Source: Bacteroidota bacterium (lineage in GTDB: Bacteria > Bacteroidota > Bacteroidia > B-17B0 > Aurantibacillaceae). Taken from it: a stretch of 64,000 nt of DNA. The DNA lies in the NCBI GenBank assembly GCA_019638705.1, contig JAHBTI010000016.1, forward strand, positions 4,177-68,176. The letters are read 5' to 3'. The position numbers were made by a program, and so were the translations under genes. This document shows positions 11,956 to 26,788 of the stretch, piece by piece. The notes under the pieces were generated by a model. It searched no databases. It was not told where the DNA came from and worked only from the letters and a program-made list of their open reading frames with translations. The stretch's first letter is position 1. Each line of letters starts with the position of its first letter.

Positions 11956-12381
11956 ATGAAAGCACTATTTTCCATTATCGTTTTTGTACTGATGTTATTG
12001 TTTTGCAATACAACAAAAGCCCAAGAAAACAGCCTTGTGTTAAGTTATGACAACGGCGGCAACATGACACAAAGAAAAGTGCAAGTGATGTTTGGCGCAA
12101 GATTTGCCGCACCTGATATACAACAAAAAGATTCCTTACCCCCGATGAAAATATATCCAAATCCTACAAATGATTATGTAAACATTGAGGGAAAACTGCC
12201 TGAAAACGTGCGAAAAGCAGAATTACTTATCAGCACAACAGACGGGCGTATTTTGAAAACAGATGTTTATACAGGCGAAGCAAAACAAATTTCTGTTTAC
12301 AATTTAGCCAAAGGAATGTATCTGCTTGAGTTTATTTATTCCAAAAAACAGAGAGACACTTATAAAATTATTGTGAACTGA
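11956..12381 (+). CDS. Small T9SS type A sorting-domain protein
   Basis: Signal peptide, LSYDNGGNMTQR, then KIYPNPT...LAKGMYLL...TYKIIVN sorting domain. Confidence 0.8.
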   Translation: MKALFSIIVFVLMLLFCNTTKAQENSLVLSYDNGGNMTQRKVQVMFGARFAAPDIQQKDSLPPMKIYPNPTNDYVNIEGKLPENVRKAELLISTTDGRILKTDVYTGEAKQISVYNLAKGMYLLEFIYSKKQRDTYKIIVN

Positions 12382-12428: not shown

Positions 12429-15400
12429 ATGGAAAAAGCATTTAGTTTTATCGCCTTGTTTTGTTTGTCTTGCCTAAATATGCAAGCGCAAAACCCGAGC
12501 AATTACACATTCCCGAACCCGACACCCAACCCGAATAATTTAACTGCCAATACTTACACAAGGGCAACGCAAAGTATTAACCTGAAAAACGGGTTTTCTT
12601 TCAACCCTGCGGCATCGCAAAACGGAAATAACCTTTTAAACTTAAACATCAACTCTTATCCAAACTATGTAAATAACAATTACACTAATCCTGCCGACAA
12701 TCAAAATTACTATTCTGTAAATCCTAATTTAGAAGTGGGTGTTACACAGGGCGCACACCAAGTGGACAACATCGGTGGATTTAATTATAATATTCCAATC
12801 GTTTGTTCGCCCGGCAGAGCAGGTTTAGAACCAAACTTGTCAGTAGTGTATAACAGCAACGGCGGCAACGGTTGGTTGGGTTTGGGCTTTAATTTAAGCG
12901 GCATTTCTGCCATTACCCGCACGGGAAAAACCGTGTTATACGACGGTTTAAACAGCGGGATTAATTTTAACAGTAATGATGTTTATGCTTTAGACGGCTC
13001 TCGCTTATTTATAAAATCAGGAACATACGGACAAAACGGCGCAACGTACAGAACAGAGGTAGAAAATTACGCCGTTATTACCTCACATGGCTCACAAGGC
13101 AGCGGAGCACAATACTTTACAGTTACCACACCCGACGGCATGACAATGGAGTATGGCAACAATGCTTCGGCAAAGAGTGTAGATGTAAATAATACCGATG
13201 TGTTGGCTTGGTACATAAACAAAGTGTATGATGTGTATGGAAATTACATGGAATATTTTTATACGAACAGCAACGGTGAATTGCTGATTACAAAAATAGA
13301 ATACACTAAGCACAGCAGTGTAAACTTATACAACAAAATAGAGTTTAATTACATAGAACGCAGCGACAATGCTCCGCTTTATGTGGCAGGCAAAGAGTTT
13401 AGGAATAAACATTTGTTACAAAGCATAGTTAGCAAAGACATAAACGGCAATGCAGTAAGAAAATATTTTTTTGAGTATCAATATCAGTACGGCAGCTTGC
13501 TGAACAAAGTAACCGAAGTGGACGCAAACGGCAATCAATTAAATCCTACGTTTTTTGAGTGGAATGATGAAACGTTGAGTTGGAACTGGAAGTTTGGAGC
13601 TGTAAGCACAGCTACTGATATTGTGCGAACTACTGCTGCCGACATAAATGGTGATGGCAAGCAAGATTTAATATTGACAAGGGATTACGGTGCAGACCAC
13701 TATGTGGAAACTAAATTAAACGTTGGGGGAAGTTTTTCTCACATCAGCGGTTTGCTGTTAAGTGCCAGTTCTGCCAGTGCAGAAATATTTGCCATATATG
13801 TTTTTGATGAAGACGATGACGGCATAGACGAAGTGTTTTACATTATGGGACAGCCCATAACCACACCCAATCATTATGAATGGGAAATTAAAAAACTTAA
13901 AAACACCAATGGCACGTTAAGCATTGTACAGGAAGAACCCTTACACACAGATACAGGTGCAGTAGTGTGTTGGGGCGGTTTATTTTGGAATTTTCAGAAA
14001 AGTGTTACTTCGGGGTGTTTTTACGCTAAGCAAGATGTAACGGGCGACAATCTGAATGATGTAATTATGTCAGACGGGTTTAATATTAAACTTACTCCGT
14101 CCAATCAACAGGCTGCCATTACTTTACCTGTTTCAAACTTAGTGAAAATTGGTTTAGGCGACTTTAACGGCGATGGAGTTTTGGATATTTATACAGTAAA
14201 ATTCCCCTCTACTCCGGTTAGCCCTTCTCAAAGCCAATTGCTTGATATTTTAGTTTATTCTTATAATGAAGCAAACAATACCTTAAACCAAATTGTATCT
14301 ACGCAGGTAAACATTGGTTCTAATCCCTATTATACAACTTGGGGAGCAATTGGTTTTGCAGCTGCCAATGCTGCTAATGCTTCCAAATGTATTGGCTTTG
14401 GCGATGTAAACGGCGATGGGAAAACCGATATATTTTATGTAAACTACAACAACGGCACAAGCACTTGTAAACTCATCTGGCTGCGCAGTAACGGCGTTGC
14501 GTTTATGACCGCTCCGCAAGATGAAATTTCATTAACCACGGCAACAACATTCAATAATCTTGAAGCCAATTTTTCTGTGGCAGATGTGAATAATGACGGC
14601 AAATCAGACATTATGGTTAGTAGTTTTGATACTGTTTATGTAGGTCATGCAAGTTATTCTTATTTTCCCTCTATTGGAACTGCCCTTGTAAACGACAATA
14701 TGCCAACTGCGCCTGTTTGGGGAAGAAGGCTAAGCACTATGGGTGATTTTGACGGCGACGGAGCTATGGATTTTGTGTTTCAAGATGACGCAACCGACAG
14801 TTATATTCTCTATCACGGTTTTGACGAAGACAACAAAAAAATGGTGAAACGCATTTTTAACATCAGAGATGAGATAAACATTACCTATAATTTTTTGCCA
14901 AGTGCAGCCAACTGCCAAAAAACAACTCCGGCGTATGGCAATAATAATTATGCCAATTTTAAAATCATTAAACCCGCCCTGTATGCGGTTTCTTCTGTGG
15001 TTGCCAACGGGCAAACCACAAGCTACGGATACAGCAACGGCATTTTGCACAGGCAAGGGCGGGGCTTTATAGGCTTTGAACGCTTGTTTGTGCGCAACGA
15101 AGATAAATCTTCGGGTGCGGAAAAAGCGGGTATGTATTCAGGCTTTGAATATAATCACATTAATGATGCCGTAACTTGGAGTGAAAGCATGAGCACCTAT
15201 TTATCAAACAGCAATATGTTTAGCATTAACCATGCTAAAACTTCAAGCTACTCTTCCTCGTTGCCAGGTTTTTCTTATGTAAACGGCAGCGGTTATCTGC
15301 GCCGCCTGAGCAGCAACCAAACCATATCAAAAAATTACCTCAGCTCCACGCATAACCTGCAAACTGTTACTTACGACCCTAACAACGCAGGTTCGCCCCT

Positions 15401-18400
15401 GCAAACGGTTTTTCAAAACCGCACATGGCTGCAATTCGGGATACTGAACAGCACACAAACAGACTATGTTTATCAAACAATTGCCGTAAACGGCAAAACC
15501 TGTTACAAACCCCAGCAGGTAACAGAACAGATAAGCGCAGGCAGCGTTTCTACGTTTATTCACACATACAGTTATGATGGGCAGGGGCGTTTAACCACAG
15601 AAGTTAAAAACTCAAACATTGCGGGGCAAGCCGTTACCACCGCCTATTCTAATTTTAACGCTTTTGGCGCACCGCAAAACATTTCGGTTTCTGCTCCCAA
15701 TGTGGCTTCGCGCAGCTCGCAGGTGCAATACGACAACACAGGGCGGTTTATAACCAAAAGCACCAATGCCATTGGCGATTTTGCAGAATTTGTGTACGAA
15801 CCGGGTTTGGGAAATAAAATTCAGGAAAAAGATGCTTCGGGTTTAATTACAAATTATAAATACGACGGACTTGGGCGAGCCATTTGGGTAAAGTTGCCAA
15901 ACGGCGCGGTAAATACGGTAAAATATGAGTGGTATCCTTATAATTCATTGTACGGCACTAAAGTAACCACCCAAGCAGAAAACGCACCAAGCACATGGAA
16001 ATACTATGACCGCAACGGCAATATGATATTGGCACAACAGCAAGATTTTGGCGGCAATACAAAAACGGCAAATTTCACCTACAATATTTTAAATCAACCG
16101 CTCACGGCGCAGGATATGCACTACAGCTCACAAAGCAATTACAACAGCATAACATACAGCTATGATGATTATATGCGCCCTTTAACAAAAACAAAAAGCA
16201 TTGTCGGACAAAACACGGTAATAAATTATTCATACAACAATTTAAGTAACAACAGCACTTACAATAAAGGCTTTGTGCAAATGAGCGCGCCTACCGCCAC
16301 AAACGGCATTACCTATTCCGTAAAACGCGAAAACAACTCGGCAGGGCAAACAGACAAAGTAATAAACACAAGCAACGGCACAACGCACAGTGCCTCTTAT
16401 AATTTTAATGAGTTTGGGCAGCCGACCTATATAAGCAACGATTATGCAGGCGCAGGGCAATACGGCATTACCATGAGCTACGATGCGCTTGGCAGGCAAA
16501 GCGGTTTAAACGACCCTAACGCGGGCAACTGCACATATCAGTACAACGCCTTTGGTGAACTGACACAGCAAATTACACCCAACGGCACATACAATATGCA
16601 ATATGATTTGCTGGGGCGTGTAACACAAAAAACAGACGGTGCAAACAACACCTACACTTACCTGTACGAAACAAGCAACAGCGGCAAAGGGCAACTGAAA
16701 CAAATTACAGGTGCAAACATGACTACCGAGTTTAAATACGATGACTTTAGCCGCCTTACCGAAAAGAAAGAAACCTTAACGGCAGACAACAAAGTTTTTA
16801 AAAGCAATTTTACTTACAACAAATACGGGCAGCTTGTAAATTACACTTACCCAAGCGGTTTTGTTACTAAAAATGAGTACGACAATATTGGCAACCTGAT
16901 AAAAATAAAAAACGGCAACACCACTATTTGGCAATTAAACACTATGGCTGCACCCGGCATAGTAAGCAATTACAAATACAACAACGGAAATTTAAGCAAC
17001 AGCATTGTTTACGATAATAAGTTAAATCTGTCGGAAATACACTATGGTAATTTGAAAACACACTGGTATGACATAGAACACAAAACCAACAACCTGCAAA
17101 CCCGTACTGTTTTTGATAACAATTATGCTAATCAGGAAATTTTTAAGTACGATGAATTTGACCGCCTTACTAAAGTGCAGTATTATAATATCAATACCAT
17201 GTACGACAAAGCTACCATGACGTATAATCAAAACGGCAACTTTAACCAAAAGAGCGATTGCGGTGATTATGTGTATGGCAACAGCAATGCTCCCTACCAA
17301 CTCACGGCAATACAAAATCCCGTAACAGCAAACATCAGTTTAAACACGCTGAATGTAACCTACAACACATTTAGAAAAGTAAGCCAAATTGTAGAGGCAG
17401 ACCCTAACGGCACTAAGCAGTTTGACTTTGTGTATGGCAACGATGAGCAGCGTGTAAAAATGGCGTACAGCGTAGGTGGCAGCACAATTTATACACGGTA
17501 TTATGCTGACGGCTGCGACAGGCAGGAAGACAATGTAAACAACACATACAAAGAGTGGACATATATTTACGCCCCAACAGGCTTATGTGCCGTGTATTAC
17601 AGCGGCACATCTCTCCCCCCTGTGGGGGGAGGCGGAGGGGGGCTTTACTACGTTGCTCCCGACCATTTGGGCAGCCCTGTAATGCTGATTAACAGCAACG
17701 GACAAATAGCAGAAGAATACAGCTTTGACGCTTGGGGGCGCAGGCGCAATCCGCAGGATTGGAACGATTATGTAAACACAGGTTTCCCCCCTTTGGGGGG
17801 TGCAGGGGGGCTTCTAATACGCGGCTACACCATGCACGAAATGCTTGATGAAGTTGGCATAATAAACATGAACGGGCGCATTTACGACCCTGTGCTTGGG
17901 CGTTTTTTGCAACCTGATAATTATGTGCAAAGCCCTGACAATTTGCAGAATTTCAATAGGTATGGGTATTGTTTAAATAATCCGCTGAAATATACTGACC
18001 CGAGTGGGGAGGTGATTGGTGTTGCAGAAATTTTGGCAGCAACAATAGGCGGAGTGATGAATGTTGCTGCAAATTGGGACGCAATAAAAAATTCCAAAAG
18101 TTCATTTGGGGCAGGAGTTGCTTACTTTGGAATAGGAGCAGTGAGCGGAGTTGTAGGTTTGTACACATTTGGAGCAGGTGGCGGCGCATTAGCTGCGCTT
18201 GGTAATGGATTAATGCAACAACAAAGTGGAGGGCAAATTGTACAAAACATGGTTGTAGGTGCTGTATCAGGTCTTACAAGCTATGGTATTGCTTCGGGGC
18301 TTGGCTCTATAAACTATGGGGGAATTACCAATAATTTTGCAAGATACGCCGCCAAAGCAGGTATAAGTTTTGGTGTAGGTTTTTCATCAGGTTTTGGTGG

Positions 18401-18977
18401 AAATTTGACGGGACAGGCATTGGCGTGGCAATTTGGCTGGCAGGATAGAATTAATGGGAAAGCAGTGCTGACGAGCGGTTTAACAGGAGGTAGTATTGCT
18501 ATGGGTATTTCTATTGGATATTCTGCTTATGATTATGCAACGTGGGATAGGTATGACCCAACTGTTCAAGCAGAAATGCTAAACAAGGATGGGTGCAATA
18601 TCGAATATATGAGTAAAGAAAAATGGGATGCCTTATCGGATGATGTTAAAGGAGGCAGGAATTACAAAACAACAGGAGGAATAACCACTGACGGTGTTTC
18701 CTACATCACCGATTATGGACTAAGCAATAGGCAATTTGCCAATTCGGTTTATTACCATGAAACCACCCATTATAATCAGATTCATGACAATCCTCCAGGA
18801 TTTATAAGTATACGCCATGATGAACAAAATGCATACTTGAGCCAAAGTTCATCGTTCAATAATTACACTCCTACTAGATACATTAAATATACCAACAACG
18901 GTTATTCAGGGAATGGTGGTAGAGGGCTCGTTTATAAGTCTAATTTTAGTAATAACCTGTTTAATATATTTAGATAA
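12429..18977 (+). CDS. RHS/YD polymorphic toxin with SpvB-like and FG-GAP (TcB-like) N-terminus and an HExxH metallopeptidase-like tip
   Basis: Signal peptide; SpvB-like GGFNYNIPI...PNLSVVYNSNGGNGWLGLG; five DxNxDGxxD repeats; YD repeats; core end GRFLQPD...NPLKYTDPSG; Gly-rich hydrophobic linker; HETTH and downstream E. Confidence 0.9.
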   Translation: MEKAFSFIALFCLSCLNMQAQNPSNYTFPNPTPNPNNLTANTYTRATQSINLKNGFSFNPAASQNGNNLLNLNINSYPNYVNNNYTNPADNQNYYSVNPNLEVGVTQGAHQVDNIGGFNYNIPIVCSPGRAGLEPNLSVVYNSNGGNGWLGLGFNLSGISAITRTGKTVLYDGLNSGINFNSNDVYALDGSRLFIKSGTYGQNGATYRTEVENYAVITSHGSQGSGAQYFTVTTPDGMTMEYGNNASAKSVDVNNTDVLAWYINKVYDVYGNYMEYFYTNSNGELLITKIEYTKHSSVNLYNKIEFNYIERSDNAPLYVAGKEFRNKHLLQSIVSKDINGNAVRKYFFEYQYQYGSLLNKVTEVDANGNQLNPTFFEWNDETLSWNWKFGAVSTATDIVRTTAADINGDGKQDLILTRDYGADHYVETKLNVGGSFSHISGLLLSASSASAEIFAIYVFDEDDDGIDEVFYIMGQPITTPNHYEWEIKKLKNTNGTLSIVQEEPLHTDTGAVVCWGGLFWNFQKSVTSGCFYAKQDVTGDNLNDVIMSDGFNIKLTPSNQQAAITLPVSNLVKIGLGDFNGDGVLDIYTVKFPSTPVSPSQSQLLDILVYSYNEANNTLNQIVSTQVNIGSNPYYTTWGAIGFAAANAANASKCIGFGDVNGDGKTDIFYVNYNNGTSTCKLIWLRSNGVAFMTAPQDEISLTTATTFNNLEANFSVADVNNDGKSDIMVSSFDTVYVGHASYSYFPSIGTALVNDNMPTAPVWGRRLSTMGDFDGDGAMDFVFQDDATDSYILYHGFDEDNKKMVKRIFNIRDEINITYNFLPSAANCQKTTPAYGNNNYANFKIIKPALYAVSSVVANGQTTSYGYSNGILHRQGRGFIGFERLFVRNEDKSSGAEKAGMYSGFEYNHINDAVTWSESMSTYLSNSNMFSINHAKTSSYSSSLPGFSYVNGSGYLRRLSSNQTISKNYLSSTHNLQTVTYDPNNAGSPLQTVFQNRTWLQFGILNSTQTDYVYQTIAVNGKTCYKPQQVTEQISAGSVSTFIHTYSYDGQGRLTTEVKNSNIAGQAVTTAYSNFNAFGAPQNISVSAPNVASRSSQVQYDNTGRFITKSTNAIGDFAEFVYEPGLGNKIQEKDASGLITNYKYDGLGRAIWVKLPNGAVNTVKYEWYPYNSLYGTKVTTQAENAPSTWKYYDRNGNMILAQQQDFGGNTKTANFTYNILNQPLTAQDMHYSSQSNYNSITYSYDDYMRPLTKTKSIVGQNTVINYSYNNLSNNSTYNKGFVQMSAPTATNGITYSVKRENNSAGQTDKVINTSNGTTHSASYNFNEFGQPTYISNDYAGAGQYGITMSYDALGRQSGLNDPNAGNCTYQYNAFGELTQQITPNGTYNMQYDLLGRVTQKTDGANNTYTYLYETSNSGKGQLKQITGANMTTEFKYDDFSRLTEKKETLTADNKVFKSNFTYNKYGQLVNYTYPSGFVTKNEYDNIGNLIKIKNGNTTIWQLNTMAAPGIVSNYKYNNGNLSNSIVYDNKLNLSEIHYGNLKTHWYDIEHKTNNLQTRTVFDNNYANQEIFKYDEFDRLTKVQYYNINTMYDKATMTYNQNGNFNQKSDCGDYVYGNSNAPYQLTAIQNPVTANISLNTLNVTYNTFRKVSQIVEADPNGTKQFDFVYGNDEQRVKMAYSVGGSTIYTRYYADGCDRQEDNVNNTYKEWTYIYAPTGLCAVYYSGTSLPPVGGGGGGLYYVAPDHLGSPVMLINSNGQIAEEYSFDAWGRRRNPQDWNDYVNTGFPPLGGAGGLLIRGYTMHEMLDEVGIINMNGRIYDPVLGRFLQPDNYVQSPDNLQNFNRYGYCLNNPLKYTDPSGEVIGVAEILAATIGGVMNVAANWDAIKNSKSSFGAGVAYFGIGAVSGVVGLYTFGAGGGALAALGNGLMQQQSGGQIVQNMVVGAVSGLTSYGIASGLGSINYGGITNNFARYAAKAGISFGVGFSSGFGGNLTGQALAWQFGWQDRINGKAVLTSGLTGGSIAMGISIGYSAYDYATWDRYDPTVQAEMLNKDGCNIEYMSKEKWDALSDDVKGGRNYKTTGGITTDGVSYITDYGLSNRQFANSVYYHETTHYNQIHDNPPGFISIRHDEQNAYLSQSSSFNNYTPTRYIKYTNNGYSGNGGRGLVYKSNFSNNLFNIFR
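17613..17642 (+). repeat. GC-rich palindromic element in frame inside the RHS gene (encodes LPPVGGGGGG)
   Basis: CTCCCCCC-TGT-GGGGGGAG followed by a G run. Confidence 0.6.
17783..17811 (+). repeat. Second GC-rich palindromic element in frame inside the RHS gene (encodes FPPLGGAGG)
   Basis: CCCCCC-TTT-GGGGGG-TGCA-GGGGGGC. Confidence 0.6.
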
Positions 18978-18982
18978 AAAAG

Positions 18983-19498
18983 ATGGTAAGAATTTGCACC
19001 TATACTATACTATTTATTAATATATTCATTAATAATTTATTTGCACAAATATCGCTTAAACTAGATACTTATACAATTGAATACGACAAGGATAATGTTG
19101 CGACGGGTGTTCAGATAATTTATCAATCCATAGTGGAAAAAGATACAGTACTAAAACTATATTTAACAAAGGAAGAGTTAATTGAGTTTAAAAGCGATAA
19201 AAAAATTCGAAGCGAAAGTTTATTTGATATAATTACAGTCAATGTAGTTCCATTTACCAAAAACAACATTCAAAGTATTATTATGCGACCAGCATATGTA
19301 ATGACTAAATTGAATAAAGAAAGGGTTAAATTGAATAAAGGAGAATTCTTCAAAGTAGTTTTAACTATTTCATTGAGAAGTTTTCAAAATGGAATAAATA
19401 AAGAGTTTGTTTCGCCAAATGAAATCAAGAGCCTTAACATAGAAATACTTAACAACAACAAGAGGGTTATGGATAAAAACTATATAAATATCCATTGA
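18983..19498 (+). CDS. Putative cognate immunity protein of the RHS toxin
   Basis: Starts 5 bp after the toxin stop, AT-rich, signal-peptide-like N-terminus; function inferred from position. Confidence 0.6.
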   Translation: MVRICTYTILFINIFINNLFAQISLKLDTYTIEYDKDNVATGVQIIYQSIVEKDTVLKLYLTKEELIEFKSDKKIRSESLFDIITVNVVPFTKNNIQSIIMRPAYVMTKLNKERVKLNKGEFFKVVLTISLRSFQNGINKEFVSPNEIKSLNIEILNNNKRVMDKNYINIH

Positions 19499-19504
19499 GC
19501 GAAG

Positions 19505-19675
19505 CCCCCGCGCTCGCCCCCGCTCCGCAGGATTTTGAGCGTTGATAAGAGCAGAGGTAATCCTGCGGTTGTATGTAAAAGACAGGAATTGTAAATTTAA
19601 AGCAAATGAAAAAATGTATTGCAACCGCAGGATTAGCCACGCGCTTGCTTTCGCACAAAATCCTGCGGAGCGGGC
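19505..19675. repeat. REPIN-like doublet element, family 1
   Basis: 19-bp perfect terminal inverted repeat CCCGCTCCGCAGGATTTTG (19519-19537 / 19656-19674) and 14-bp inner inverted repeat (19558-19571 / 19622-19635); preceded by a family-2 end fragment CCCCCGCGCTCG. Confidence 0.85.
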
Positions 19676-19827
19676 ATGCTGTAATGGTAAATAAAGTCAA
19701 AGTTTGGCCTAATGGTAACTATAAAATATATTTTTCAGACCCAAGTCCAGTTCGGAAAGCACCATACTCGAGTTATAAAATTCCATTCGGTGCTGGTTTT
19801 TGGACTTTTTATTTACGCAAAAACTAA
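19675..19827 (+). pseudogene. Orphan 3' stub of a toxin gene (papain/C39-like peptidase tip)
   Basis: HAVMVNKVKVWPNGNYKIYFSDPSP...YLRKN*, no start of its own, begins at the REP end; HAV...Y..DP pattern. Confidence 0.5.
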
Positions 19828-19832
19828 TAAAA

Positions 19833-20534
19833 ATGATAAAGCGATTACAGCGTTTCTTTTGGATTATTTTAATTCAGCAATTATCTGCGCAAGAAGATAA
19901 AATCGTATTTTATTCTAACAATAAAGGGGATTTTGTCTGTATTCATAAAGATACTATTATGTACAAAATTCATAATAATGATGATTTTGCTTCATTTTGG
20001 ATTGGAAAAGCAATATTTAAAGAAGATAACAAAACCATTTGTTTAAAAAGAATGTTTCCTTTGAAGCACTTAATGACTTCTATAGTTAAGCATAAAAGTG
20101 ATAGTAGCGGATTTAGTATTTTATATAACGATAGCTCGCCGTTGTTTGGAAATGTTGAGGTATTAGATAATAAAAATAAAAAAATACATTTGGACGGACA
20201 CTTTAATAAAAATGGTTTTTTTCTGATAAATGAAGAATTATCAAGAAAAATAAATAATCTTGACATTACAGTATCTATAACATATTTAAGTTTTTTTTCG
20301 GAAAATAAATTGACATTTCAAAACGGATTTAATTACGAAATAAGAAGCAGAGTATGTTACCCCTATTACATAATAGAGGATAAAAAAAAGGTAGAGTTCA
20401 AAATATTAAATGAAAAACAGGTAAGTGTGAAATATGTTGTGAAACATAATAGAAAATACAACGAGCAATTTGAGGTCGTTTTGAATAAGAATGAAAATAT
20501 TATTAGGAGTTGCGAAACACTACCTTTTTGGTAG
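19833..20534 (+). CDS. Putative orphan immunity protein (secreted)
   Basis: ATG 19833, 5 bp after the stub stop; signal peptide MIKRLQRFFWIILIQQLSAQ; very AT-rich. Confidence 0.6.
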   Translation: MIKRLQRFFWIILIQQLSAQEDKIVFYSNNKGDFVCIHKDTIMYKIHNNDDFASFWIGKAIFKEDNKTICLKRMFPLKHLMTSIVKHKSDSSGFSILYNDSSPLFGNVEVLDNKNKKIHLDGHFNKNGFFLINEELSRKINNLDITVSITYLSFFSENKLTFQNGFNYEIRSRVCYPYYIIEDKKKVEFKILNEKQVSVKYVVKHNRKYNEQFEVVLNKNENIIRSCETLPFW

Positions 20535-20536
20535 TG

Positions 20537-20708
20537 CCCCGCGCTCGTCCTCGTTTGAGCGGTAGCGGAAACGAGGATGTTTTAGCTGTGCGTTTGCAAC
20601 GCACATACAGCAAAAAAAAAGATTTTGTATAAAAAAGGAAATAGAAAAGATAAGTCGTTACAAACGCCGTTCTCAAACGTCCTCGTTACAAACGAGGACG
20701 AGGGGGGG
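20537..20708. repeat. REPIN-like element, family 2
   Basis: 14-bp terminal inverted repeat CTCGTCCTCGTTTG (20544-20557 / 20689-20702); right hairpin CGTCCTCGTT-ACA-AACGAGGACG; internal hairpin TGTGCG-TTTGCAA-CGCACA. Confidence 0.8.
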
Positions 20709-20795
20709 AAAGTATTGGGGACTACTCCTTATGTGAAAATCCATATGAATTCTGAAGGAATGGTACATTTCGTTCCTTGGTTGCCTAAACCTTAA
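20709..20795 (+). pseudogene. Orphan 3' stub of a toxin gene (resembles Ntox50-type RNase tips)
   Basis: KVLGTTPYVKIHMNSEGMVHFVPWLPKP*, begins at the REP end; KIH...G..H.VP pattern. Confidence 0.45.
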
Positions 20796-20804
20796 AAAAG
20801 TATA

Positions 20805-20906
20805 ATGGAAAAGTTAAAAAAAGAGCTTCAAAAGTTTTGGGATTGGGCGCAACTAACACCTGATGAGTACGGAAGCGGTATTCCCCCCGCTCCGCAGGAT
20901 TTGTAA
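20805..20906 (+). pseudogene. 5' fragment of a putative immunity gene truncated by a REP
   Basis: MEKLKKELQKFWDWAQLTPDEYGSGI runs straight into the REP at 20883, which supplies PPAPQDL*. Confidence 0.5.
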
Positions 20907-20914
20907 TCCTGCGG
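20886..20914 (+). repeat. Left REP of the RAYT (family 1)
   Basis: CCCGCTCCGCAGGATTTGTAATCCTGCGG, a perfect 29-bp inverted copy of 21540-21568. Confidence 0.9.
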
Positions 20915-20962
20915 AATGATACAAACTTTAAAATAAAAGATTATTTTTGAAGTTGAATAGTA

Positions 20963-21532
20963 ATGAAACAGGGCGAAAAACAAACCATTAAAACAGACAG
21001 AGCGTATTTTTTAACGCTAACGGTTGTTGGTTGGATAGATGTTTTTTCGCGGCAAAATCACAGAAATGCTTTTATTAATTCTTTAAAATATTGTCAGCAA
21101 AATAAAGGTTTGATTGTGTTTGCTTATGTAATGATGACAAACCACATACATTTAATGGTAAACACACACGAACCGTTTTTATTAAAAGATGTAATTAGAG
21201 ATTTGAAAAAATATACCTCTAAACAAATAATTGAGCAAATTATTAATCAACCTGAAAGCCGAAGATAATGGCTATTACAACTTTTGGAATTAGAAACAAA
21301 AGATAAACAGGGCAATAAAAATCATAAATTTTGGCAAGAAGGAAATCATGCCATAGAATTGTATAATGAAAAGTTTGTTTGGGATAAAATAAATTACATA
21401 CATAATAACCCTGTGGAAGCAGGTTATGTGAGAAAGTCGTATGAATGGATTTACTCTTCGGCGAGTAATTATTACGGTATGGAAAGCATAATAGAAGTAG
21501 AATGTTTGCAACAAAGATTAAATACAATTTAG
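20963..21532 (+). pseudogene. REP-associated tyrosine transposase (RAYT / Y1 HUH) with one in-frame TAA at 21266-21268
   Basis: YFLTLT, HUH motif NHIHL, KFWQ, catalytic YIHNNPV, YSSA. The two ORF-track pieces (20963-21268, 21284-21532) share one frame: ESRR*WLL. Confidence 0.85.
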
Positions 21533-21539
21533 CTGTGTG

Positions 21540-21568
21540 CCGCAGGATTACAAATCCTGCGGAGCGGG
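21540..21568 (-). repeat. Right REP of the RAYT (family 1)
   Basis: CCGCAGGATTACAAATCCTGCGGAGCGGG, 7 bp after the RAYT stop. Confidence 0.9.
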
Positions 21569-21613
21569 CCTGTATGGGCAGGATTATACAACACATGGCA
21601 ATATAATCATTAA
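21566..21613 (+). pseudogene. Orphan 3' stub of a toxin gene (15 codons)
   Basis: GPVWAGLYNTWQYNH* begins at the REP end and stops 11 bp before the next gene; too short to be certain. Confidence 0.4.
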
Positions 21614-21624
21614 AACCAAAGTTT

Positions 21625-22038
21625 ATGAAAATATTTAAACATATTATAATTGGAATGGCATATTTTTTTATGTTCTCTCAAGCAGATTGCAAAAAAAAAG
21701 AAAATTGCCACAGTAAAATTATTATACAGAACAAATCAAATACCCCTGTTATCTGCGGCGAAAAACGTTATGACGGTTCTAATAATTGTAATATAGTGGG
21801 ACAAATATTGAAATCTAATGATAATTATGAATTAGTTTTTGGACAGTTTTCTTGTTGGGAAAACACTTTGTCGGGAGGAAAAACTAAGGATATTTATATT
21901 ATAGATACCGCTACATATAATAACCCAAATGTTTTTTATTCATGTGATTCTATGGAATATAAAAACACCATACTGAAACACTTTATATTAACGTTAGACG
22001 ATTTAAAGAAGAATAATTTTACAATTGCATATCCATGA
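21625..22038 (+). CDS. Putative orphan immunity lipoprotein
   Basis: Hydrophobic leader then ADC-KKKENC; AT-rich; follows a toxin-like stub. Confidence 0.6.
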   Translation: MKIFKHIIIGMAYFFMFSQADCKKKENCHSKIIIQNKSNTPVICGEKRYDGSNNCNIVGQILKSNDNYELVFGQFSCWENTLSGGKTKDIYIIDTATYNNPNVFYSCDSMEYKNTILKHFILTLDDLKKNNFTIAYP

Positions 22039-22331
22039 AAAAATCAGTAATTAGAATTTTTGTTTGTGTTATACTGTGTGGTTGCGGTAAAAAACCAACA
22101 GCAAATTTCACTTGGTCGCCACAAAATCCAAAAGCAGGGCAAGAAATGCAGTTTACTAATACTTCAACCGATGCAAAAAAGTATGATTGGAATTTGGGTA
22201 ATATGAAGATAAGTTCAGAAAAAGACCCAAAAAACACTTACGATAATGCTGGTGAATACATTATTGATTTAACAGCGCATAATGGTGTGAAGTCAAGTAC
22301 AAAAACAGTTACTATTACCGTAATTCCATAA
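22035..22331 (+). CDS. PKD-domain lipoprotein
   Basis: Lipobox LCGC; PTANFTWS...FTNTS...YDWNLGN...P.NTY...GEY.I.LT; ATGA overlap with the previous gene. Confidence 0.8.
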   Translation: MKKSVIRIFVCVILCGCGKKPTANFTWSPQNPKAGQEMQFTNTSTDAKKYDWNLGNMKISSEKDPKNTYDNAGEYIIDLTAHNGVKSSTKTVTITVIP

Positions 22332-22395
22332 CAAAAACGTCAGGAAAGTGATAAAACTACAAGTTATTAGTTATCCATAACCCTTGCGTAACCGC

Positions 22396-22498
22396 CCCCC
22401 GCTCCGCAGGATTTTGAGCGTTGATAAGGGCAGAGATAATCCTGCGGTTGTATGTAAAAGACAGGAATTGTAAATTTAAAGCAAATGAAAAAATGTAT
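22396..22498 (+). repeat. Truncated second copy of the family-1 REPIN (left 103 bp)
   Basis: 101 of 103 positions identical to 19517-19619; ends abruptly 9 bp before the stop of the convergent gene. Confidence 0.9.
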
Positions 22499-22507
22499 CA
22501 AGTTAAT

Positions 22508-23023
22508 TTACTTTGGCAACTCAAATACATACCCATTTTGTCCTATCTGTTTAGTGCCAACAATGCGTCCATACTTCATGGCTTTGTTTAAATGAAACGA
22601 CAAACATTTTTGATGATTGGTCATAACATCAAATTTCATGTCGTTGTTGCGCAAAATTTCAATAATCTCCGATGAGCGCAAAGGTCTGTCGGCAGCATTT
22701 AACACAAAAACAATTTTATCAATCCATGTGGCATTAAGGTTGTAAGTGTTTCCGAGTTTTAAATCAGCAATACGTTTGTAATATTCTCTTTCCACAGCCA
22801 CATCAGACGATTGTTTAATCAACCGATTAATTTGCTTTTTGTAAAACGAAATATCTTCCCTGTGTCTTTCTTGTGTTTTACTTTGCGAAACGTAACAATC
22901 TGTGAGTTTATTCATCAACATTTCATCACGTTGCTGCAATTCTATGACCTTTTTTATTAATTCTGCTTTACTTAATTGTTCAAGCACTACTGCATTCAAA
23001 TATTTTATCAATAAATTTTTCAT
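22508..23023 (-). CDS. Hypothetical protein, coiled coil plus probable winged-helix DNA-binding domain
   Basis: TWIDKIVFVLNAADRPLRSSEIIEIL...LSFHLNKAMKYGRI...GYVFELP resembles a wHTH. Confidence 0.6.
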   Translation of the reverse strand: MKNLLIKYLNAVVLEQLSKAELIKKVIELQQRDEMLMNKLTDCYVSQSKTQERHREDISFYKKQINRLIKQSSDVAVEREYYKRIADLKLGNTYNLNATWIDKIVFVLNAADRPLRSSEIIEILRNNDMKFDVMTNHQKCLSFHLNKAMKYGRIVGTKQIGQNGYVFELPK

Positions 23024-23192: not shown

Positions 23193-23371
23193 GGTGCGAA
23201 AATAAATGCTGCAAATCATTCCCTGTCCGAATTTCTACCGTTTGCTTCCTTTCCCTGCCGATTTTTGTCGCTCTTCTAAAAAATAATTTGGTGATTTTAA
23301 TTCAATCAAATAATGTTTCAATCTAAAAATTGATGATTGATAAAAGTTTTTTTCGTTTTCAATTCATTTAA

Positions 23372-23498
23372 AAATCGTTTTCAACCCGACCGCAAACGAA
23401 ACCAATCGGACAATCGCGCACCACTTAGACACCAATCGGGCAAAATTCGGACAAGGCAAATTTTACTTGTTATACTTTCGCGCGCGAACAATAAAAAA
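23372..23498 (+). promoter_or_regulatory. 127-bp regulatory module, copy 1
   Basis: 116 of 127 positions identical to 24628-24754; contains ACCAATCGG twice, a TACTTTCG -7-like box and the palindrome TTCGCGCGCGAA. Confidence 0.75.
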
Positions 23499-23509
23499 CA
23501 GAAAAAATT

Positions 23510-24562
23510 ATGATGTCATTCAGATTAAACGAGTTTGTAAATGCAAACAGTTTTGAGCAACTCGCAGCCTTGTACGAAACCATTGACGAAAAACGCTTGC
23601 ACATAAGCGATACAGGCATTAGCGAAAGCCTTATCAACCGTTGGAAAATAAAAGGCTTATTAAACTTCGGAAAAGAAACCAAAAACCAAAAACTGATTTT
23701 AATGTTACCCATAAAACAAAAAATAAGTTTCATCGAGTTTGTGTGGATTAAAATTGCAAACGAACTGCAAACATTCGGAATTACTTTAGAAACAATAAAC
23801 AAAATGGCAAAAGACTTGTTCGGAAAAATATCCGACAATGAACTCTACAAAAATTTGATAACTAATTTTAAAACAGGGGACAGCGTGCAAACACAGGAAA
23901 ATGAAAAACTAATGCTGTTCCTCAAATTAAAAGAAGAAAGTGAAAACGCATTTCATTTTCTGCACGTTTTAACAGCCCAAGCTGTGGTAACTCAAGAACC
24001 GATATTGATGATGGTATTTAATAACGAAACTTGGTTTCCGTACTTAGAACAGAACAATGCACAATATCCCGAAGACCTGATGAGAAAAAAACAAACCTTG
24101 CCTTATGTGAGCATAAACCTTACCAATATTGTTTACACATACATTTATCAAGATTATTTGCAAGAGATGTTTAGCGGAATGTCAATGTTTACAGCCGAAG
24201 AAGCAAACTTGTTGTATTACATTGCAGAGGGAAATTTCAAAAAAATTCATGTGTCATTTAAGACCACTACACAAAAGCCGAAAGAAATACCAAAAGCAGA
24301 AAACACATTCCGAGAGGTCATTCACCTGTTTTTAAATCAACAATACAGATATTGTACTTTGACAGATAACAAAGGCAGAGAAATTAAAATCACAACAAAA
24401 GATGAGCTTGCCATAAAATTATTTGAAGATAAATGTAAAGAAGTGAAACAATACAAACGTTTGCTTTTAAACCACACTCAAAATTTAGAAGCAAACCAAA
24501 CGGAAACAGCAACAGAAAAGCAGAATAAAAAGGAAGAAACACAAGAACAAGAAGCAAAATAA
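23510..24562 (+). CDS. MerR-like HTH domain protein
   Basis: HISDTGISESLINRWKIKGLL and ISFIEFVWIKIANELQTFGITLETI N-terminal motifs. Confidence 0.6.
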   Translation: MMSFRLNEFVNANSFEQLAALYETIDEKRLHISDTGISESLINRWKIKGLLNFGKETKNQKLILMLPIKQKISFIEFVWIKIANELQTFGITLETINKMAKDLFGKISDNELYKNLITNFKTGDSVQTQENEKLMLFLKLKEESENAFHFLHVLTAQAVVTQEPILMMVFNNETWFPYLEQNNAQYPEDLMRKKQTLPYVSINLTNIVYTYIYQDYLQEMFSGMSMFTAEEANLLYYIAEGNFKKIHVSFKTTTQKPKEIPKAENTFREVIHLFLNQQYRYCTLTDNKGREIKITTKDELAIKLFEDKCKEVKQYKRLLLNHTQNLEANQTETATEKQNKKEETQEQEAK

Positions 24563-24627
24563 TCAAGGCGGGCATAAAAAATAAAATCACGGTGGCTAAT
24601 TACCAACGTGATTTTTGTGTTTATTAC

Positions 24628-24754
24628 AAATCATTTTCAACCCGACCGCAAACGAAACCAATCGGATAATTGCGCATCACATAGACACCAATCGGACAAA
24701 ACTCGGACAAGGCAATTTTCACTTATCATACTTTCGCGCGCGAACAATAAAAAA
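24628..24754 (+). promoter_or_regulatory. 127-bp regulatory module, copy 2
   Basis: Ends 10 bp upstream of ATG 24765; heads the small-gene plus recombinase unit. Confidence 0.75.
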
Positions 24755-24764
24755 ACAAGAAATC

Positions 24765-25139
24765 ATGAGCATAAAACAGGTAAAATCAGCAAATCCCAAA
24801 GCTAAAATATTAATTTTTATTACATTGATAATCAATATAATAAGTATTTGTTTTTGGGTATATTTGTGCCAATCCGCACAAAAAACAAACCAAGAAAAAG
24901 TTGAACAAAAAACACGATTAATTTTTATGCAAGATATAACAGCAGAAGAAATTTTAGCTGAAAGTGAATTTAAAAATTTGAACGAAGAACAAGCCAAGCA
25001 AGTAGCAGAGTTTGTTAATACAATAAGCACCATTTTTTATTCACTCTATAAACAGCAATACGAAGACGGATACAAATTTGAAACACAATTAAACGTAGAA
25101 ACAAATCATAATTACGAACCATTAAAAACCGCAGCATAA
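24765..25139 (+). CDS. Small hypothetical protein immediately upstream of the recombinase
   Basis: ATG 24765 preferred (the ORF-track start 24615 runs through the duplicated module); one hydrophobic helix; stop 1 bp before the recombinase ATG. Confidence 0.6.
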   Translation: MSIKQVKSANPKAKILIFITLIINIISICFWVYLCQSAQKTNQEKVEQKTRLIFMQDITAEEILAESEFKNLNEEQAKQVAEFVNTISTIFYSLYKQQYEDGYKFETQLNVETNHNYEPLKTAA

Positions 25140-25140
25140 T

Positions 25141-26739
25141 ATGAACAACTTAATTTTATTTGAACAATTTGCCAAAGGCAAAACACAACTTCAAAAACGA
25201 AGCAACAACTGTGTTATTTACACCCGCGTTTCAGGCAAAGAACAAGAACTTGGTTACAGCTTGGAAACACAGCGCAAAACCTGTGAAGATTACGCCAAAA
25301 AACACCAATACGCCGTTATGGGCGTATTTGGTGGAACGTATGAAAGCGCAAAAACAGATGAACGAAAAGAATTTAACCGAATGCTTGCTTTTGTAAAAAA
25401 GAGCCGAGAAAAAATTTCATACATCATCGTTTACAGCGTGGACAGATTTTCGCGTTCGGGTGCAAATGCCATTTACATCAAAGACCAATTACGCGCACAA
25501 GGTATTTTTCTTGTTGCCGTAACACAACCTGCTGACACTTCCACATCAAGCGGCGACTTTCAGCAAAACATTCAAATCATTTTTTCGGAGTACGATAATA
25601 ATTTGCGCAGAGAAAAATGTATGGCAGGCACTCGTGAAGCTCTGATGAAAGGCGAATGGTGTCAAAGACCGCCTTATGGTTACGACATCATGAAAGAAAA
25701 CGGCAAACGCAAAATTGTTTTAAACGAAAAAGGAAAATTTTTGCAAAAAGCATTTTATTGGAAAGCAAACGAACGCCTCACGCACACCGCCATATCCGAA
25801 CGTTTGGAAACATTCGGCGTGAAAATTCCAGATAAACGTTTATCGGGTTATTTCCGAAATCCTTTTTATTGCGGGCTTATGGCACACTCCTCATTAAAGG
25901 GACAAGTTGTTGAGGGTAATCATGAAAAAATGATTAGCAAAGAAATCTTTTTAAAAGTAAACGACCTTTTAAGAGAAAACAAACACGGCTATTCTTCCAA
26001 CGAAGTAGAAGAGGGAACGCCGCTCAAACGTTTTCTGCGCTGCGACCATTGCGGAGCGTATATGAGAGGGTATATCGTTAGAAAGAAAAATCTTCCTTAT
26101 TACAAATGCAACACCTTAGGCTGCGGTAACAACAAAAGCGCGAGAGATTTACATAGCATTTTTGAAAAAACATTAAGTTGGTTTAGTTTGGTTAGCAATG
26201 CTTCTATAAGAAAATTTGTAGCCAAACAAATTGCAACAAAATACAACCGAGAACACAAAGAAAAAGACGAGAGCAAAGAAACAATCAAACGTCAAATTAC
26301 AGAGCTTCAAAAGAAACAAGAACGATTGGAAGAACGCCTTATAAATGAAGAACTAACCCTTGAGTTGTACAATAAATTTTCGGGAAAGTTCAGAGAGGAA
26401 ATAATAGCCTTAGAGAAAAATTTGCTGCAAAATCAAAAACGAGTGTCTAACCTTGAACATTGTGTAAATATCGTGTTGGATTTTGCCGCCAACCTCCCGA
26501 AATCATGGACTTTGATGGGATTTAAAGACAAACAACTGCTTCAATTTTTGTTGTTTCCGGAGGGTATTCGCTACAGCAAGAAAAACAACGAGTGTCGTAC
26601 CACCAAAATAAATTCGGTGTTTTCTTACATCGCCCATTTGGTAAGGGATATGGGACAAATAAAAAGCGGGGCATCAAAATTTTTAATTGATTGCCCCGCG
26701 TTGGTACCCCGAGCCGGAGTCGAACCGGCATGCCAATGA
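25141..26739 (+). CDS. Large serine recombinase (integrase)
   Basis: YTRVS catalytic motif, VDRFSR, PPYGY recombinase domain, zinc ribbon RCDHCG...YYKCNTLGC, coiled coil; last 11 codons come from the tRNA antisense strand. Confidence 0.92.
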   Translation: MNNLILFEQFAKGKTQLQKRSNNCVIYTRVSGKEQELGYSLETQRKTCEDYAKKHQYAVMGVFGGTYESAKTDERKEFNRMLAFVKKSREKISYIIVYSVDRFSRSGANAIYIKDQLRAQGIFLVAVTQPADTSTSSGDFQQNIQIIFSEYDNNLRREKCMAGTREALMKGEWCQRPPYGYDIMKENGKRKIVLNEKGKFLQKAFYWKANERLTHTAISERLETFGVKIPDKRLSGYFRNPFYCGLMAHSSLKGQVVEGNHEKMISKEIFLKVNDLLRENKHGYSSNEVEEGTPLKRFLRCDHCGAYMRGYIVRKKNLPYYKCNTLGCGNNKSARDLHSIFEKTLSWFSLVSNASIRKFVAKQIATKYNREHKEKDESKETIKRQITELQKKQERLEERLINEELTLELYNKFSGKFREEIIALEKNLLQNQKRVSNLEHCVNIVLDFAANLPKSWTLMGFKDKQLLQFLLFPEGIRYSKKNNECRTTKINSVFSYIAHLVRDMGQIKSGASKFLIDCPALVPRAGVEPACQ

Positions 26740-26788
26740 AGGCACTGGTGTTTGAGACCAGCGCGTCTACCAATTCCGCCATCGAGGC
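26702..26788 (-). tRNA. tRNA-Leu (CAA)
   Basis: GCCTCGATGGCGGAATTGGTAGACGCG-CTGGT-CTCAAAC-ACCAG-long variable arm-GCCGGTTCGACTCCGGC-TCGGGGT-A-CCA; 87 nt. Confidence 0.97.

Follow-up and report, generated by a model that had tools for sequence, protein, structure and literature searches.

Runs of immunity-type genes without functional toxins, some of them separated by repeats, are known from the AID/rAID islands of Bacteroidales and from integrons. REP-mediated chromosomal rearrangements are also known, as are insertion sequence (IS) insertions (H-rpt/ISAs1) behind the rhs genes of E. coli. Rhs/YD-repeat loci can carry orphan tip-immunity modules that have been displaced from the main gene by C-terminal displacement (Poole 2011, PMC3150448; Koskiniemi 2014, PMC3967940). 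Tip displacement has an analogue in the T6SS, and 3' effector remnants ahead of orphan immunity genes are explained there by models of displacement and homology-facilitated illegitimate recombination (Kirchberger 2017, PMC5361080). REPIN-RAYT systems form a separate literature (Bertels and Rainey 2011, PMC3116915 and PMC3337134; Messing 2012, PMC3479197; Bertels 2017, PMC5581495), and none of the papers that full-text searches returned connects REPs or RAYTs with Rhs arrays.

The locus described here lies in a window of 64 kb (the whole stretch of DNA that was analysed, to which all positions refer unless a contig is named). It is best read, with a probability of roughly 0.6, as an ordinary Bacteroidota RHS polymorphic-toxin locus, in which a T9SS-tail protein precedes an SpvB/FG-GAP/RHS toxin with its candidate immunity gene, and behind which an ordinary C-terminal-displacement orphan array is in decay, has been colonised by a REPIN/RAYT system and carries REP ends at its rearrangement junctions. 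The upstream half comprises three genes:

11956–12381, plus strand: small protein whose C-terminus is a T9SS sorting domain (Pfam Por_Secre_tail, 9e-12)
12429–18977, plus strand: main polymorphic toxin of 2182 aa, with signal peptide, SpvB, FG-GAP, TcdB_midN, RHS/YD repeats and Rhs core
18983–19498, plus strand: 171-aa ORF, candidate cognate immunity gene, starting 5 nt past the toxin stop

The T9SS-tail protein also has a homologue ahead of the RHS gene in L052 and L054, so that its position is kept for this type of RHS toxin. The main toxin matches the profiles RHS_repeat (Pfam, 1.7e-23) and Rhs_assc_core (NCBIfam, 1.7e-14), with the Rhs core at about residues 1799–1860, a core-end motif of the PxxxxDPxG type in the form NNPLKYTDPSGE, and then a C-terminal toxin region of ~320 aa that has no family assignment. 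Homology between the window and L052, an 86%-identical relative, ends at 18011 and the toxin tips differ beyond this point, and the tip of the main toxin has thus evidently been swapped between relatives. The 171-aa ORF matched nothing in Pfam and NCBIfam profile searches and is, by its position, a candidate immunity gene for the main toxin.

The orphan array and the repeats within it follow directly behind the 171-aa ORF:

19505–19516, no strand: 12-nt fragment CCCCCGCGCTCG, read from the sequence and similar to the leader on the left of REP type 2
19517–19674, no strand: REPIN-A, a pair of inverted REP type 1 arms (53 nt each) around a 50-nt spacer, from repeat comparison and folding
19675–19827, plus strand: stub 1, 50 codons from the very end of a C-terminal RHS toxin domain of the Cys...His type, from C-terminal homology
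19833–20534, plus strand: 233-aa secreted protein, by homology an intact orphan immunity gene, from a family of neighbours of full-length toxins
20535–20708, no strand: REPIN of the second REP family, whose stem is CCTCGTT/AACGAGG, from 0–2 nt past the immunity stop
20709–20795, plus strand: stub 2, a 28-codon open frame, candidate toxin remnant by position only
20805–20885, plus strand: start of an ORF (26–27 codons, ORF call), its frame continuing into the RAYT unit's left REP
20886–20914, no strand: left REP type 1 of the RAYT unit, with a 3-nt loop, complementary to 21540–21568 at 29 of 29 positions
20963–21532, plus strand: pseudogene of a RAYT (REP-associated Y1/HUH transposase), both halves matching NCBIfam NF047646 (REP_Tyr_transpos), and Pfam Y1_Tnp
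21540–21568, no strand: right REP type 1 of the RAYT unit, a 29/29 inverted match
21569–21613, plus strand: stub 3, an open frame of 14–15 codons (ORF call)
21625–22038, plus strand: 137-aa lipoprotein, 90% aa identity to L051 8409–8822
22035–22331, plus strand: 98-aa PKD-domain lipoprotein (Pfam PKD, 3e-10), 79% aa identity to L051 8835–9131
22396–22498, no strand: half REPIN-A (left arm and spacer), 98% identical to 19517–19619

An earlier interpretation, made from the letters alone and here called the sequence-only reading, took stub 1 for an RHS toxin tip without RHS-core homology, the gene behind it for the cognate immunity gene, and the ends of REPs for the junctions between modules, and in module 1 each of these proposals was borne out. 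Stub 1 matches the extreme C-termini of 28 proteins, RHS-core proteins among them, at 50–71% identity and with E-values down to 7e-11, a similarity far beyond chance. In the alignment this homology opens at the His codon 19675–19677, immediately after the REP arm ends at 19674, and includes neither the RHS core nor the catalytic-Cys region. The remnant, with 50 codons only and no core homology, therefore cannot be reloaded onto the toxin by recombination. The 233-aa gene is homologous to genes that lie immediately 3' of full-length toxins of the stub 1 type (L060_215, E 3e-18; L058_256, E 6e-12; L054_247, weak), and among 5.8 billion proteins searched it had no nearer relative. These matches support module 1 as a real orphan module, a toxin tip and the immunity gene cognate to it, in which the toxin is a dead 50-codon tip and the predicted immunity gene is intact.

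In L058 and L060, orphan arrays of this toxin/immunity family contain no REP at all, and no REPs accompany the homologues of the 233-aa gene there or in L054. In the REP-free array of L058 the immunity stop and the orphan overlap. Similarly, L090 contains an 85-codon orphan tip whose homology to the main toxin begins 23 nt past the immunity stop, at a junction without a REP, and short stubs can therefore arise without REPs.

The remaining short frames are a different matter. All stubs had been taken for toxin remnants, which holds for stub 1 with its C-terminal matches and is not confirmed for the 28-codon and 15-codon frames; like the ORF start at 20805, these had no relatives in family and homologue searches, and none of the three has a length beyond chance in DNA of 30% GC. 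Stub 3 has no counterpart 5' of the same lipoprotein gene in L051. The proposed gene start cut by a REP thus lacks a detectable homologue, and 20805–20885 is possibly a candidate second immunity gene that the RAYT unit truncated or interrupted; read from the sequence, exact excision of 20886–21568 would fuse its frame in frame with the 14-codon frame at 21569–21613 into a 41-codon ORF. The spacing between the stubs and the next ATG was given as 5–11 bp, and the gaps are indeed 5, 9 and 11 nt. The two lipoproteins, also proposed as orphan immunity genes, find no support in that role: the PKD lipoprotein is always paired with the 137-aa lipoprotein gene, and in L051 (from an 86%-identical relative) the pair stands behind a pnuC-like gene and an AAA_28 gene in a housekeeping context, in a region with no REPs and no RHS link. 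The two genes are probably bystanders moved beside the array by a REP-linked rearrangement, not immunity cassettes, although the location of the pair differs between relatives and the pair is bracketed by REPs in the window, a picture that REP-mediated translocation into the array would also give.

REP type 1 (CCGCTCCGCAGGATT...AATCCTGCGG) is present in five exact copies, at 19520, 19659 (minus strand), 20887, 21553 (minus strand) and 22399, against a chance expectation of 0.06, and all five fall within 19.5–22.5 kb of the 64-kb window. The REPIN and REP features reported from the sequence were confirmed at their coordinates, including the truncated REPIN with its 98% identity. The arms of REPIN-A lie at 19519–19571 and 19622–19674, and in related metagenomes this REPIN is multi-copy, with many different flanks and a ~5-fold excess in depth. 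The fragment CCCCCGCGCTCG directly precedes REPIN-A and is missing at its second copy (22396). That copy breaks 2 nt short of the expected start of the right arm and 9 nt from the stop of the convergent gene 22508–23023 (minus strand), and the same junction is found in a strain of metagenome run X1. The hairpins of the second REP family lie at 20546–20579 and 20678–20700; this hairpin occurs once in L069, between convergent genes, and the REP is dispersed in metagenomes. Every REP hairpin folds well as ssDNA (z -2.6 to -7.1). The leader of REP type 2, CCCCGCGCTCG, stands 0–7 nt behind both immunity genes, and the two successive REPINs start 0–7 nt past an immunity stop and end where the next stub starts. 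REPs are absent both within the lipoprotein pair and in the gap from any stub to the gene behind it.

The window contains a single RAYT unit, and the perfect 29-bp inverted REPs claimed for it were verified. The left hairpin folds at -12.2 kcal/mol (z -6.5), and the RAYTs of L090, L103, L134 and L042 are likewise flanked by REPs. An IS200/IS605-type cargo transposon was considered and rejected, since the RAYT alone lies between the flanking REPs, which are inverted copies of identical sequence, and the unit is single-copy in the window. The catalytic residues H61, H63 and Y145 (YIHNNP) are conserved in the alignment, and an in-frame TAA at 21266–21268 replaces a conserved Glu (GAA) and separates the HUH motif (5') from the YIHNNP tyrosine motif (3'). 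Related contigs in runs X1 and X5 have a G at 21266, which makes the nonsense codon specific to the window sequence, and the RAYT was evidently inactivated recently by this single nonsense change.

Enrichment of the element next to RHS loci, as the sequence-only reading would have it, was found for the RAYT clade and not for the REP. The same REP occurs at 50 loci in ~30 Bacteroidota genomes, often clustered and with 1–6 loci per genome, and none of these 50 loci has an RHS gene nearby. Among the RAYT-clade loci, ~92% lie amid housekeeping genes and no conserved synteny surrounds them. Three of the 39 RAYT-clade loci with enough upstream sequence are directly 3' of an RHS toxin-immunity module, versus 0 matches in ~698 kb of other sequence (Fisher p = 0.004), and in these three and the window the RAYT lies 1.5–3 kb past the RHS 3' end on the same strand. 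The clade is thus modestly enriched behind RHS toxin-immunity modules, in three independent lineages besides that of the window, and accident alone is unlikely to have caused this adjacency. In two of these cases (L103 and L134) the RAYT stands behind one lone toxin-immunity pair, and no array is present. In L042, with no RHS nearby, a 17-codon 5' fragment of a RAYT is cut by a REP, a REP-adjacent partial duplication, and REP-adjacent rearrangement is therefore general.

In the decaying displacement array favoured here, the REPINs of both families and the RAYT between its REPs occupy non-essential DNA between and behind the modules, and the REP ends would mark rearrangement junctions. The first of these may lie where the toxin gene appears cut at the right end of REPIN-A, the second where a candidate gene appears cut at the left REP of the RAYT unit, and the third where the second REPIN copy appears broken off at the right arm's inner edge. 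REPs likely promote deletions and ectopic joins, for which RAYT cleavage at REP boundaries, REP-by-REP recombination and hairpin-stimulated illegitimate recombination are possible routes, and a junction could also stem from an incoming fragment ending in a REPIN or from later insertion of a REPIN into an existing junction. The outcome would be an array eroded and reshuffled without programmed construction, and the recurrence of the RAYT clade behind RHS modules would most likely reflect permissive, often-exchanged DNA that acts as a sink for mobile elements. Erosion of orphan modules beside REPs was the fallback of the sequence-only reading, and it is a better fit than a capture machine to the REP-free arrays, the dispersed REPs and the inactivated RAYT. 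Counting against it, the REPINs are placed more tidily than random neutral insertion would yield, the RAYT clade recurs behind RHS modules beyond what accident would readily explain, and the lipoprotein/PKD pair looks as REP-mediated translocation would leave it. If only a sink effect is at work, the locus is still a clean example in which the truncation of a toxin tip falls exactly on a REP end beside an intact cognate immunity gene, and in which REP ends mark rearrangement junctions in Bacteroidota.

It is possible, if unlikely, that the stubs and tight junctions stem from earlier C-terminal displacement and that the REPINs and the RAYT were inserted later in tolerated gaps, with no truncating role. 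A REP typically lies just past a stop codon or in the gap of a convergent gene pair, for which L069 is an example, REP-free junctions are equally tight (the overlap in L058 and the 23 nt in L090), and exact removal of the RAYT unit leaves the in-frame 41-codon ORF; against such late insertion, the second REPIN copy is itself truncated at an arm boundary, L042 has its REP-adjacent partial duplication, and a gap of a few nt, not the neutral stubs of 90–150 nt, was struck twice, which is improbable without a target preference.

A rather doubtful extension is that the Bacteroidota RAYT/REP clade is truly drawn to the 3' edge of RHS toxin-immunity modules and, as a domesticated HUH element, would by cleavage or recombination anchored at REPs time and again trim displaced toxins to dead tips, spare immunity genes and at times import neighbouring genes, and so would shape which orphan immunity genes persist. 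If the link between REP/RAYT and RHS is real and mechanistic, it would give a concrete genomic role to RAYTs, whose function is debated, and add a further, new way of keeping orphan immunity genes while toxins are disabled.

It is improbable that the REPINs behind immunity genes serve as portable 3' homology, such that modules are exchanged between strains by one crossover in the RHS core and one in a REP or RAYT, end in REPINs and take RAYTs along. Both immunity genes are followed by the CCCCGCGCTCG leader, the RAYTs of L103 and L134 lie at the 3' boundary of RHS-immunity modules and the REPs are common to many genomes, but no such exchange was directly observed, L052 has no REP in the sequence available behind its immunity gene, and crossing over at a downstream REP would swap modules out, with older ones not retained.

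Least probable is the integron analogue of the sequence-only reading, in which HUH/REP single-strand chemistry captures or trims toxin-immunity modules into an acquired interbacterial defence array: it could draw on the junctions at REP ends, the three other lineages with a RAYT behind RHS modules, the intact immunity gene beside a destroyed toxin and a two-gene lipoprotein/PKD segment that lies elsewhere in a relative, is REP-bracketed here and looks like a REP-mediated translocation into the array, but the REPs are dispersed without RHS (0/50 loci), ~92% of RAYT loci are without RHS, the L058 and L060 arrays and the L090 stub are REP-free, the RAYT is a pseudogene in the window and has no array in L103 and L134, its unit possibly truncates a candidate immunity gene and does not preserve it, half of the four downstream genes are without a link to toxins, REP-bounded cassettes were in no case seen at two places, and the single joint that resembled a circle proved to be two REPs 562 nt apart elsewhere, not a circle junction.

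Compared with the known systems, the window resembles the AID/rAID islands in its run of immunity-type genes without functional toxins and with repeated DNA between some of them. Unlike rAID islands and integrons, it has no integrase and no per-cassette recombination sites, profile searches found no tyrosine recombinase in it, its repeats are generic genome REPs, and its single demonstrable immunity homologue follows a toxin remnant that points to displacement in place. A large serine recombinase is encoded 2.6 kb downstream of the array, adjoining a tRNA-Leu, with no visible link to the cassettes. REPIN-RAYT systems share with it a Y1/HUH RAYT between inverted REP hairpins, inverted REP doublets (REPINs), REPs dispersed, and also clustered, through other genomes, and an extragenic position just past stop codons; it differs in belonging to a clade of Bacteroidota whose genomes have few exact copies each, in its two stem variants with a common leader, in the nonsense codon of its RAYT, and in the ~8% of clade members directly behind RHS toxin-immunity modules. 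Similarly to E. coli rhs regions, dispersed repeats and mobile elements gather in and rearrange the variable DNA behind the rhs gene, the element here being a RAYT with REPINs and not a DDE insertion sequence. The window agrees with Rhs displacement loci in the conserved toxin body with a variable tip past the Rhs core, in a relative with another tip and immunity gene, and, for module 1 only, in a toxin's 3' remnant with the cognate immunity gene behind it, the immunity being kept and the toxin lost. It departs from them in that its remnant of 50 codons lacks core homology and is not reloadable, and in having REPINs at the module junctions and a RAYT within the array.

Behind an RHS toxin lies an orphan array of the displacement type, occupied by two families of REPIN (paired inverted REP sequences) and by a pseudogene for a REP-associated Y1/HUH transposase (RAYT). 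The main toxin (12429-18977) is a secreted protein of 2182 amino acids; its SpvB, FG-GAP, TcdB_midN, RHS-repeat, and Rhs core domains precede a tip of ∼320 amino acids that belongs to no known family and gave no match in Pfam at E up to 10. Its stop codon is separated by 5 nt from a 171-aa ORF in the immunity position (18983-19498, plus strand); by exact look-up, neither this protein nor the 137-aa lipoprotein encoded further downstream (21625-22038) is on record as an encoded gene. A relative from a compost metagenome (∼86% nucleotide identity) has the same upstream genes and RHS body, with homology stopping at 18011, beyond which its tip differs and the immunity position is taken by an LRR-type gene, a case of classical tip polymorphism. 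The small protein preceding the main toxin bears a T9SS sorting tail, and proteins of ∼140-150 aa with a T9SS C-terminal sorting domain are conserved directly before SpvB/FG-GAP/RHS toxins in three lineages (11956-12381 in the window; 678-1106 in L052, the RHS locus of the ∼86% relative; 461-913 in L054, a locus with a stub-1-type toxin) and may be secretion adaptors.

Module 1 of the array consists of a truncated toxin end, stub 1 (19675-19827), and a gene encoding a 233-aa protein with a signal peptide (19833-20534). In an exhaustive search, stub 1 matched 28 proteins at their extreme C-termini (50-71% identity); several are RHS-core proteins, and one, a toxin of 2072 aa, shares the architecture of the window toxin. 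The aligned homology starts at the invariant His of an HAVMV motif, the codon of which (19675-19677) begins one base past the end of the REP arm at 19674; the REP-encoded residues that precede it do not match the toxin homologs, and the Cys-containing upstream part of the toxin domain is missing. Sequence searches of NCBIfam and PDB with this toxin domain, taken from homolog P0012, returned no named family, and the stubs and candidate immunity genes gave nothing in Pfam at E up to 10. Homolog searches with the 233-aa and 137-aa proteins each retrieved only the protein itself, and the 233-aa gene is homologous to genes directly after full-length stub-1-type toxins in L060 (E 3e-18) and L058 (6e-12), with a weaker collinear match to the corresponding neighbor in L054. 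Because of this homology, module 1 is a genuine orphan, a dead toxin tip with an intact cognate immunity gene, and the C-terminal matches and neighbor homology bear out the sequence-only reading of stub 1 and the gene that follows it.

Motif counts, inverted arms, and hairpin folds confirm that the repeats first described from the sequence are real. The motif CCGCTCCGCAGGATT has five exact copies against 0.06 expected, all confined to the 19.5-22.5 kb part of the 64-kb window, and every REP hairpin folds far better than shuffled controls. The elements are the following:

19517-19674: REPIN-A, two inverted 53-nt arms (REP type 1)
20535-20708: element of a second REP family (REP type 2), different stem, CCTCGTT/AACGAGG
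20886-20914 and 21540-21568: perfect 29-bp inverted pair, bracketing the RAYT
22396-22498: half REPIN, matching REPIN-A (left arm plus spacer) at 98% identity

REPIN-A is covered at roughly 5-fold excess in related metagenomes and has many different flanks there; the second REP type is likewise dispersed, and this pattern speaks against a tie of the REPs to RHS. A metagenome scan with the 25-mer of the REPIN-A arm gave 0 matches. The leader CCCCGCGCTCG is found within 0-7 nt after both immunity-position genes (19505-19516 and 20537-20548). The long form of REP type 1 and REP type 2 have the loop start TTGAGCG in common and differ in their stems, resembling compensated variants of one element, and REPs with a type-2-like stem flank the RAYT of locus L134 (46% identity).

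Both halves of the RAYT (20963-21532, plus strand) match NCBIfam REP_Tyr_transpos, with the HUH motif before and the YIHNNP tyrosine motif after an in-frame TAA (21266-21268). Aligned with five homologs (57-68% identity), the gene has this TAA in place of a conserved Glu, and base 21266 is G, giving GAA, in related contigs of two metagenome runs. Since the homologs keep the Glu and the related contigs read GAA, the knockout is specific to the window sequence and is probably recent. Precise removal of the RAYT unit (20886-21568) would join a 27-codon start (20805-20885) in frame to a 14-codon frame (21569-21613). The product, a Trp-rich ORF of 41 codons with its end 11 nt ahead of the lipoprotein ATG, could be a small gene interrupted by the unit; no homologs of this ORF were found.

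Of the remaining short frames, two had also been taken for toxin remnants. Neither stub 2 (20709-20795, 28 codons), nor stub 3 (14 codons), nor the 26-27-codon start that the left REP cuts off has relatives in Pfam at E up to 10 or in a linked homolog query; all three are too short to stand on their own, and the proposal that stubs 2 and 3 are toxin stubs gains no support from those searches. Nor does anything mark the 137-aa lipoprotein and the 98-aa PKD lipoprotein (22035-22331) as orphan immunity genes, as had been suggested. The ∼86% relative carries both elsewhere, on a contig assigned to the same organism by matching depth, flanked on one side by a pnuC-like gene plus an AAA_28 gene and on the opposite side by a further chromosomal gene; neither REP nor RHS was found on this 10.9-kb contig. 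Because the pair lies elsewhere in the relative and homology to the window is limited to the two genes, they form a conserved pair that occupies different positions in different relatives.

Between the array and a 532-aa large serine recombinase (25141-26788; Resolvase, Recombinase, and Zn-ribbon domains) lie two ORFs of no assigned function (23510-24562 and 24615-25139), with the copies of a 131-nt direct repeat of 91% identity (23368-23498 and 24624-24754) upstream of or at their starts. The 3′ end of the recombinase gene overlaps an opposite-strand tRNA-Leu(caa), followed by prs and the gene for ribosomal protein L25. The RHS locus, together with a KAP NTPase and an AraC regulator, falls within a low-GC stretch (∼5.1-26.8 kb) that may have integrated at tRNA-Leu as an island; no att-like repeat of the tRNA-Leu region was found that would delimit it. 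A T9SS-sorted fn3/propeller protein of 797 aa, encoded on the minus strand, contains two tandem 284-nt copies (2998-3578; 82% identity), probably repeated Ig-like domains.

The expected enrichment of REPs and RAYT near RHS loci held for the RAYT clade but not for the REP itself. The exact REP (25 specified bases) was found at 50 loci in ∼30 Bacteroidota genomes, often in clusters of 3-7, none of them with RHS by tblastn of the whole RHS protein. A profile search for the RAYT clade yielded 80 metagenome loci, and at least 1.5 kb of upstream sequence was available in only 39 of 85 RAYT loci. In L090, L103, and L134, the RAYT is preceded on its own strand, at a distance of 1.5-3 kb, by an RHS 3′ end and immunity-type genes, and it is flanked by its own inverted REPs; these RAYTs are 46-61% identical to that of the window and therefore represent independent lineages. 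These 3 of 39 loci compare with no RHS-core match in the remaining ∼698 kb of fetched sequence (Fisher p = 0.004; binomial p < 0.007 even with a generous 1% background). Other upstream neighbors of the clade are ordinary housekeeping genes and a few transposases, and a conserved-synteny home locus was rejected, as neighbor clusters span at most 4 loci. The association is real but limited to a minority of the clade; we read it as mobile DNA accumulating in permissive, frequently exchanged sequence, and a specific affinity of the clade for RHS modules seems unlikely.

REP ends coincide with at least two breakpoints supported independently of the short open frames, one where the toxin is truncated (19674/19675) and one where the REPIN is (22498). 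We infer that REPs promoted or anchored deletions and joins, possibly by illegitimate recombination stimulated by the hairpins, by recombination between REPs, or by nicks that the RAYT made at REP boundaries; on balance the array would have been eroded. L042 (1780-2260) has a partial copy of the RAYT 5′ end, 17 codons long and cut by a REP, then a REPIN and the complete RAYT gene, with no RHS nearby, so REP-adjacent truncation and duplication also occur away from RHS. The RAYT unit itself cuts one candidate immunity gene, which argues against the earlier idea of a process that keeps immunity genes. Alternatively, incoming modules may have brought the REPINs in, or the REPINs may have been inserted later into already tight junctions. 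The left flank of REPIN-A is the stop codon of the upstream gene and not toxin sequence, which rules out a simple insertion of this element into an intact orphan. REP-junction circles were looked for, and the single candidate joint (21568->20885, in metagenome runs X2 and X4) was rejected as two REPs 562 nt apart in another context.

Arrays of this kind do not need REPs for their making: the L058 array and an L090 junction are REP-free, and the published displacement model suffices. L058 contains a main RHS gene, its immunity gene, an orphan (core fragment and stub-1-type tip) with its immunity gene, and a second orphan (Ntox23) with its own, with overlapping junctions. The homology of an 85-codon orphan tip in L090 to the main toxin starts 23 nt past the previous immunity stop, and no REP was found at this junction. 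Displacement with homology-facilitated illegitimate recombination accounts for 3′ effector remnants before retained immunity genes (PMC5361080). An immunity-position family ending WFW..KK.YK.YKK recurs in RHS arrays of different lineages (L090, 4335-5700; L058, 3674-4348 and 8233-8880), among other places downstream of the L090 RAYT.

Among the papers returned by the literature searches, none connects Rhs or orphan-immunity arrays with REP or RAYT, and both the placement of REPINs exactly at module junctions and the recurrent position of the RAYT clade behind RHS modules appear undescribed there. The likening of the locus to an integron or rAID system did not survive comparison, as it differs from these in having no dedicated recombinase, no recombination site at each cassette boundary, and no cassettes found again together with their sites. 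Its components are of known kinds, RHS orphan arrays and REPIN-RAYT systems.
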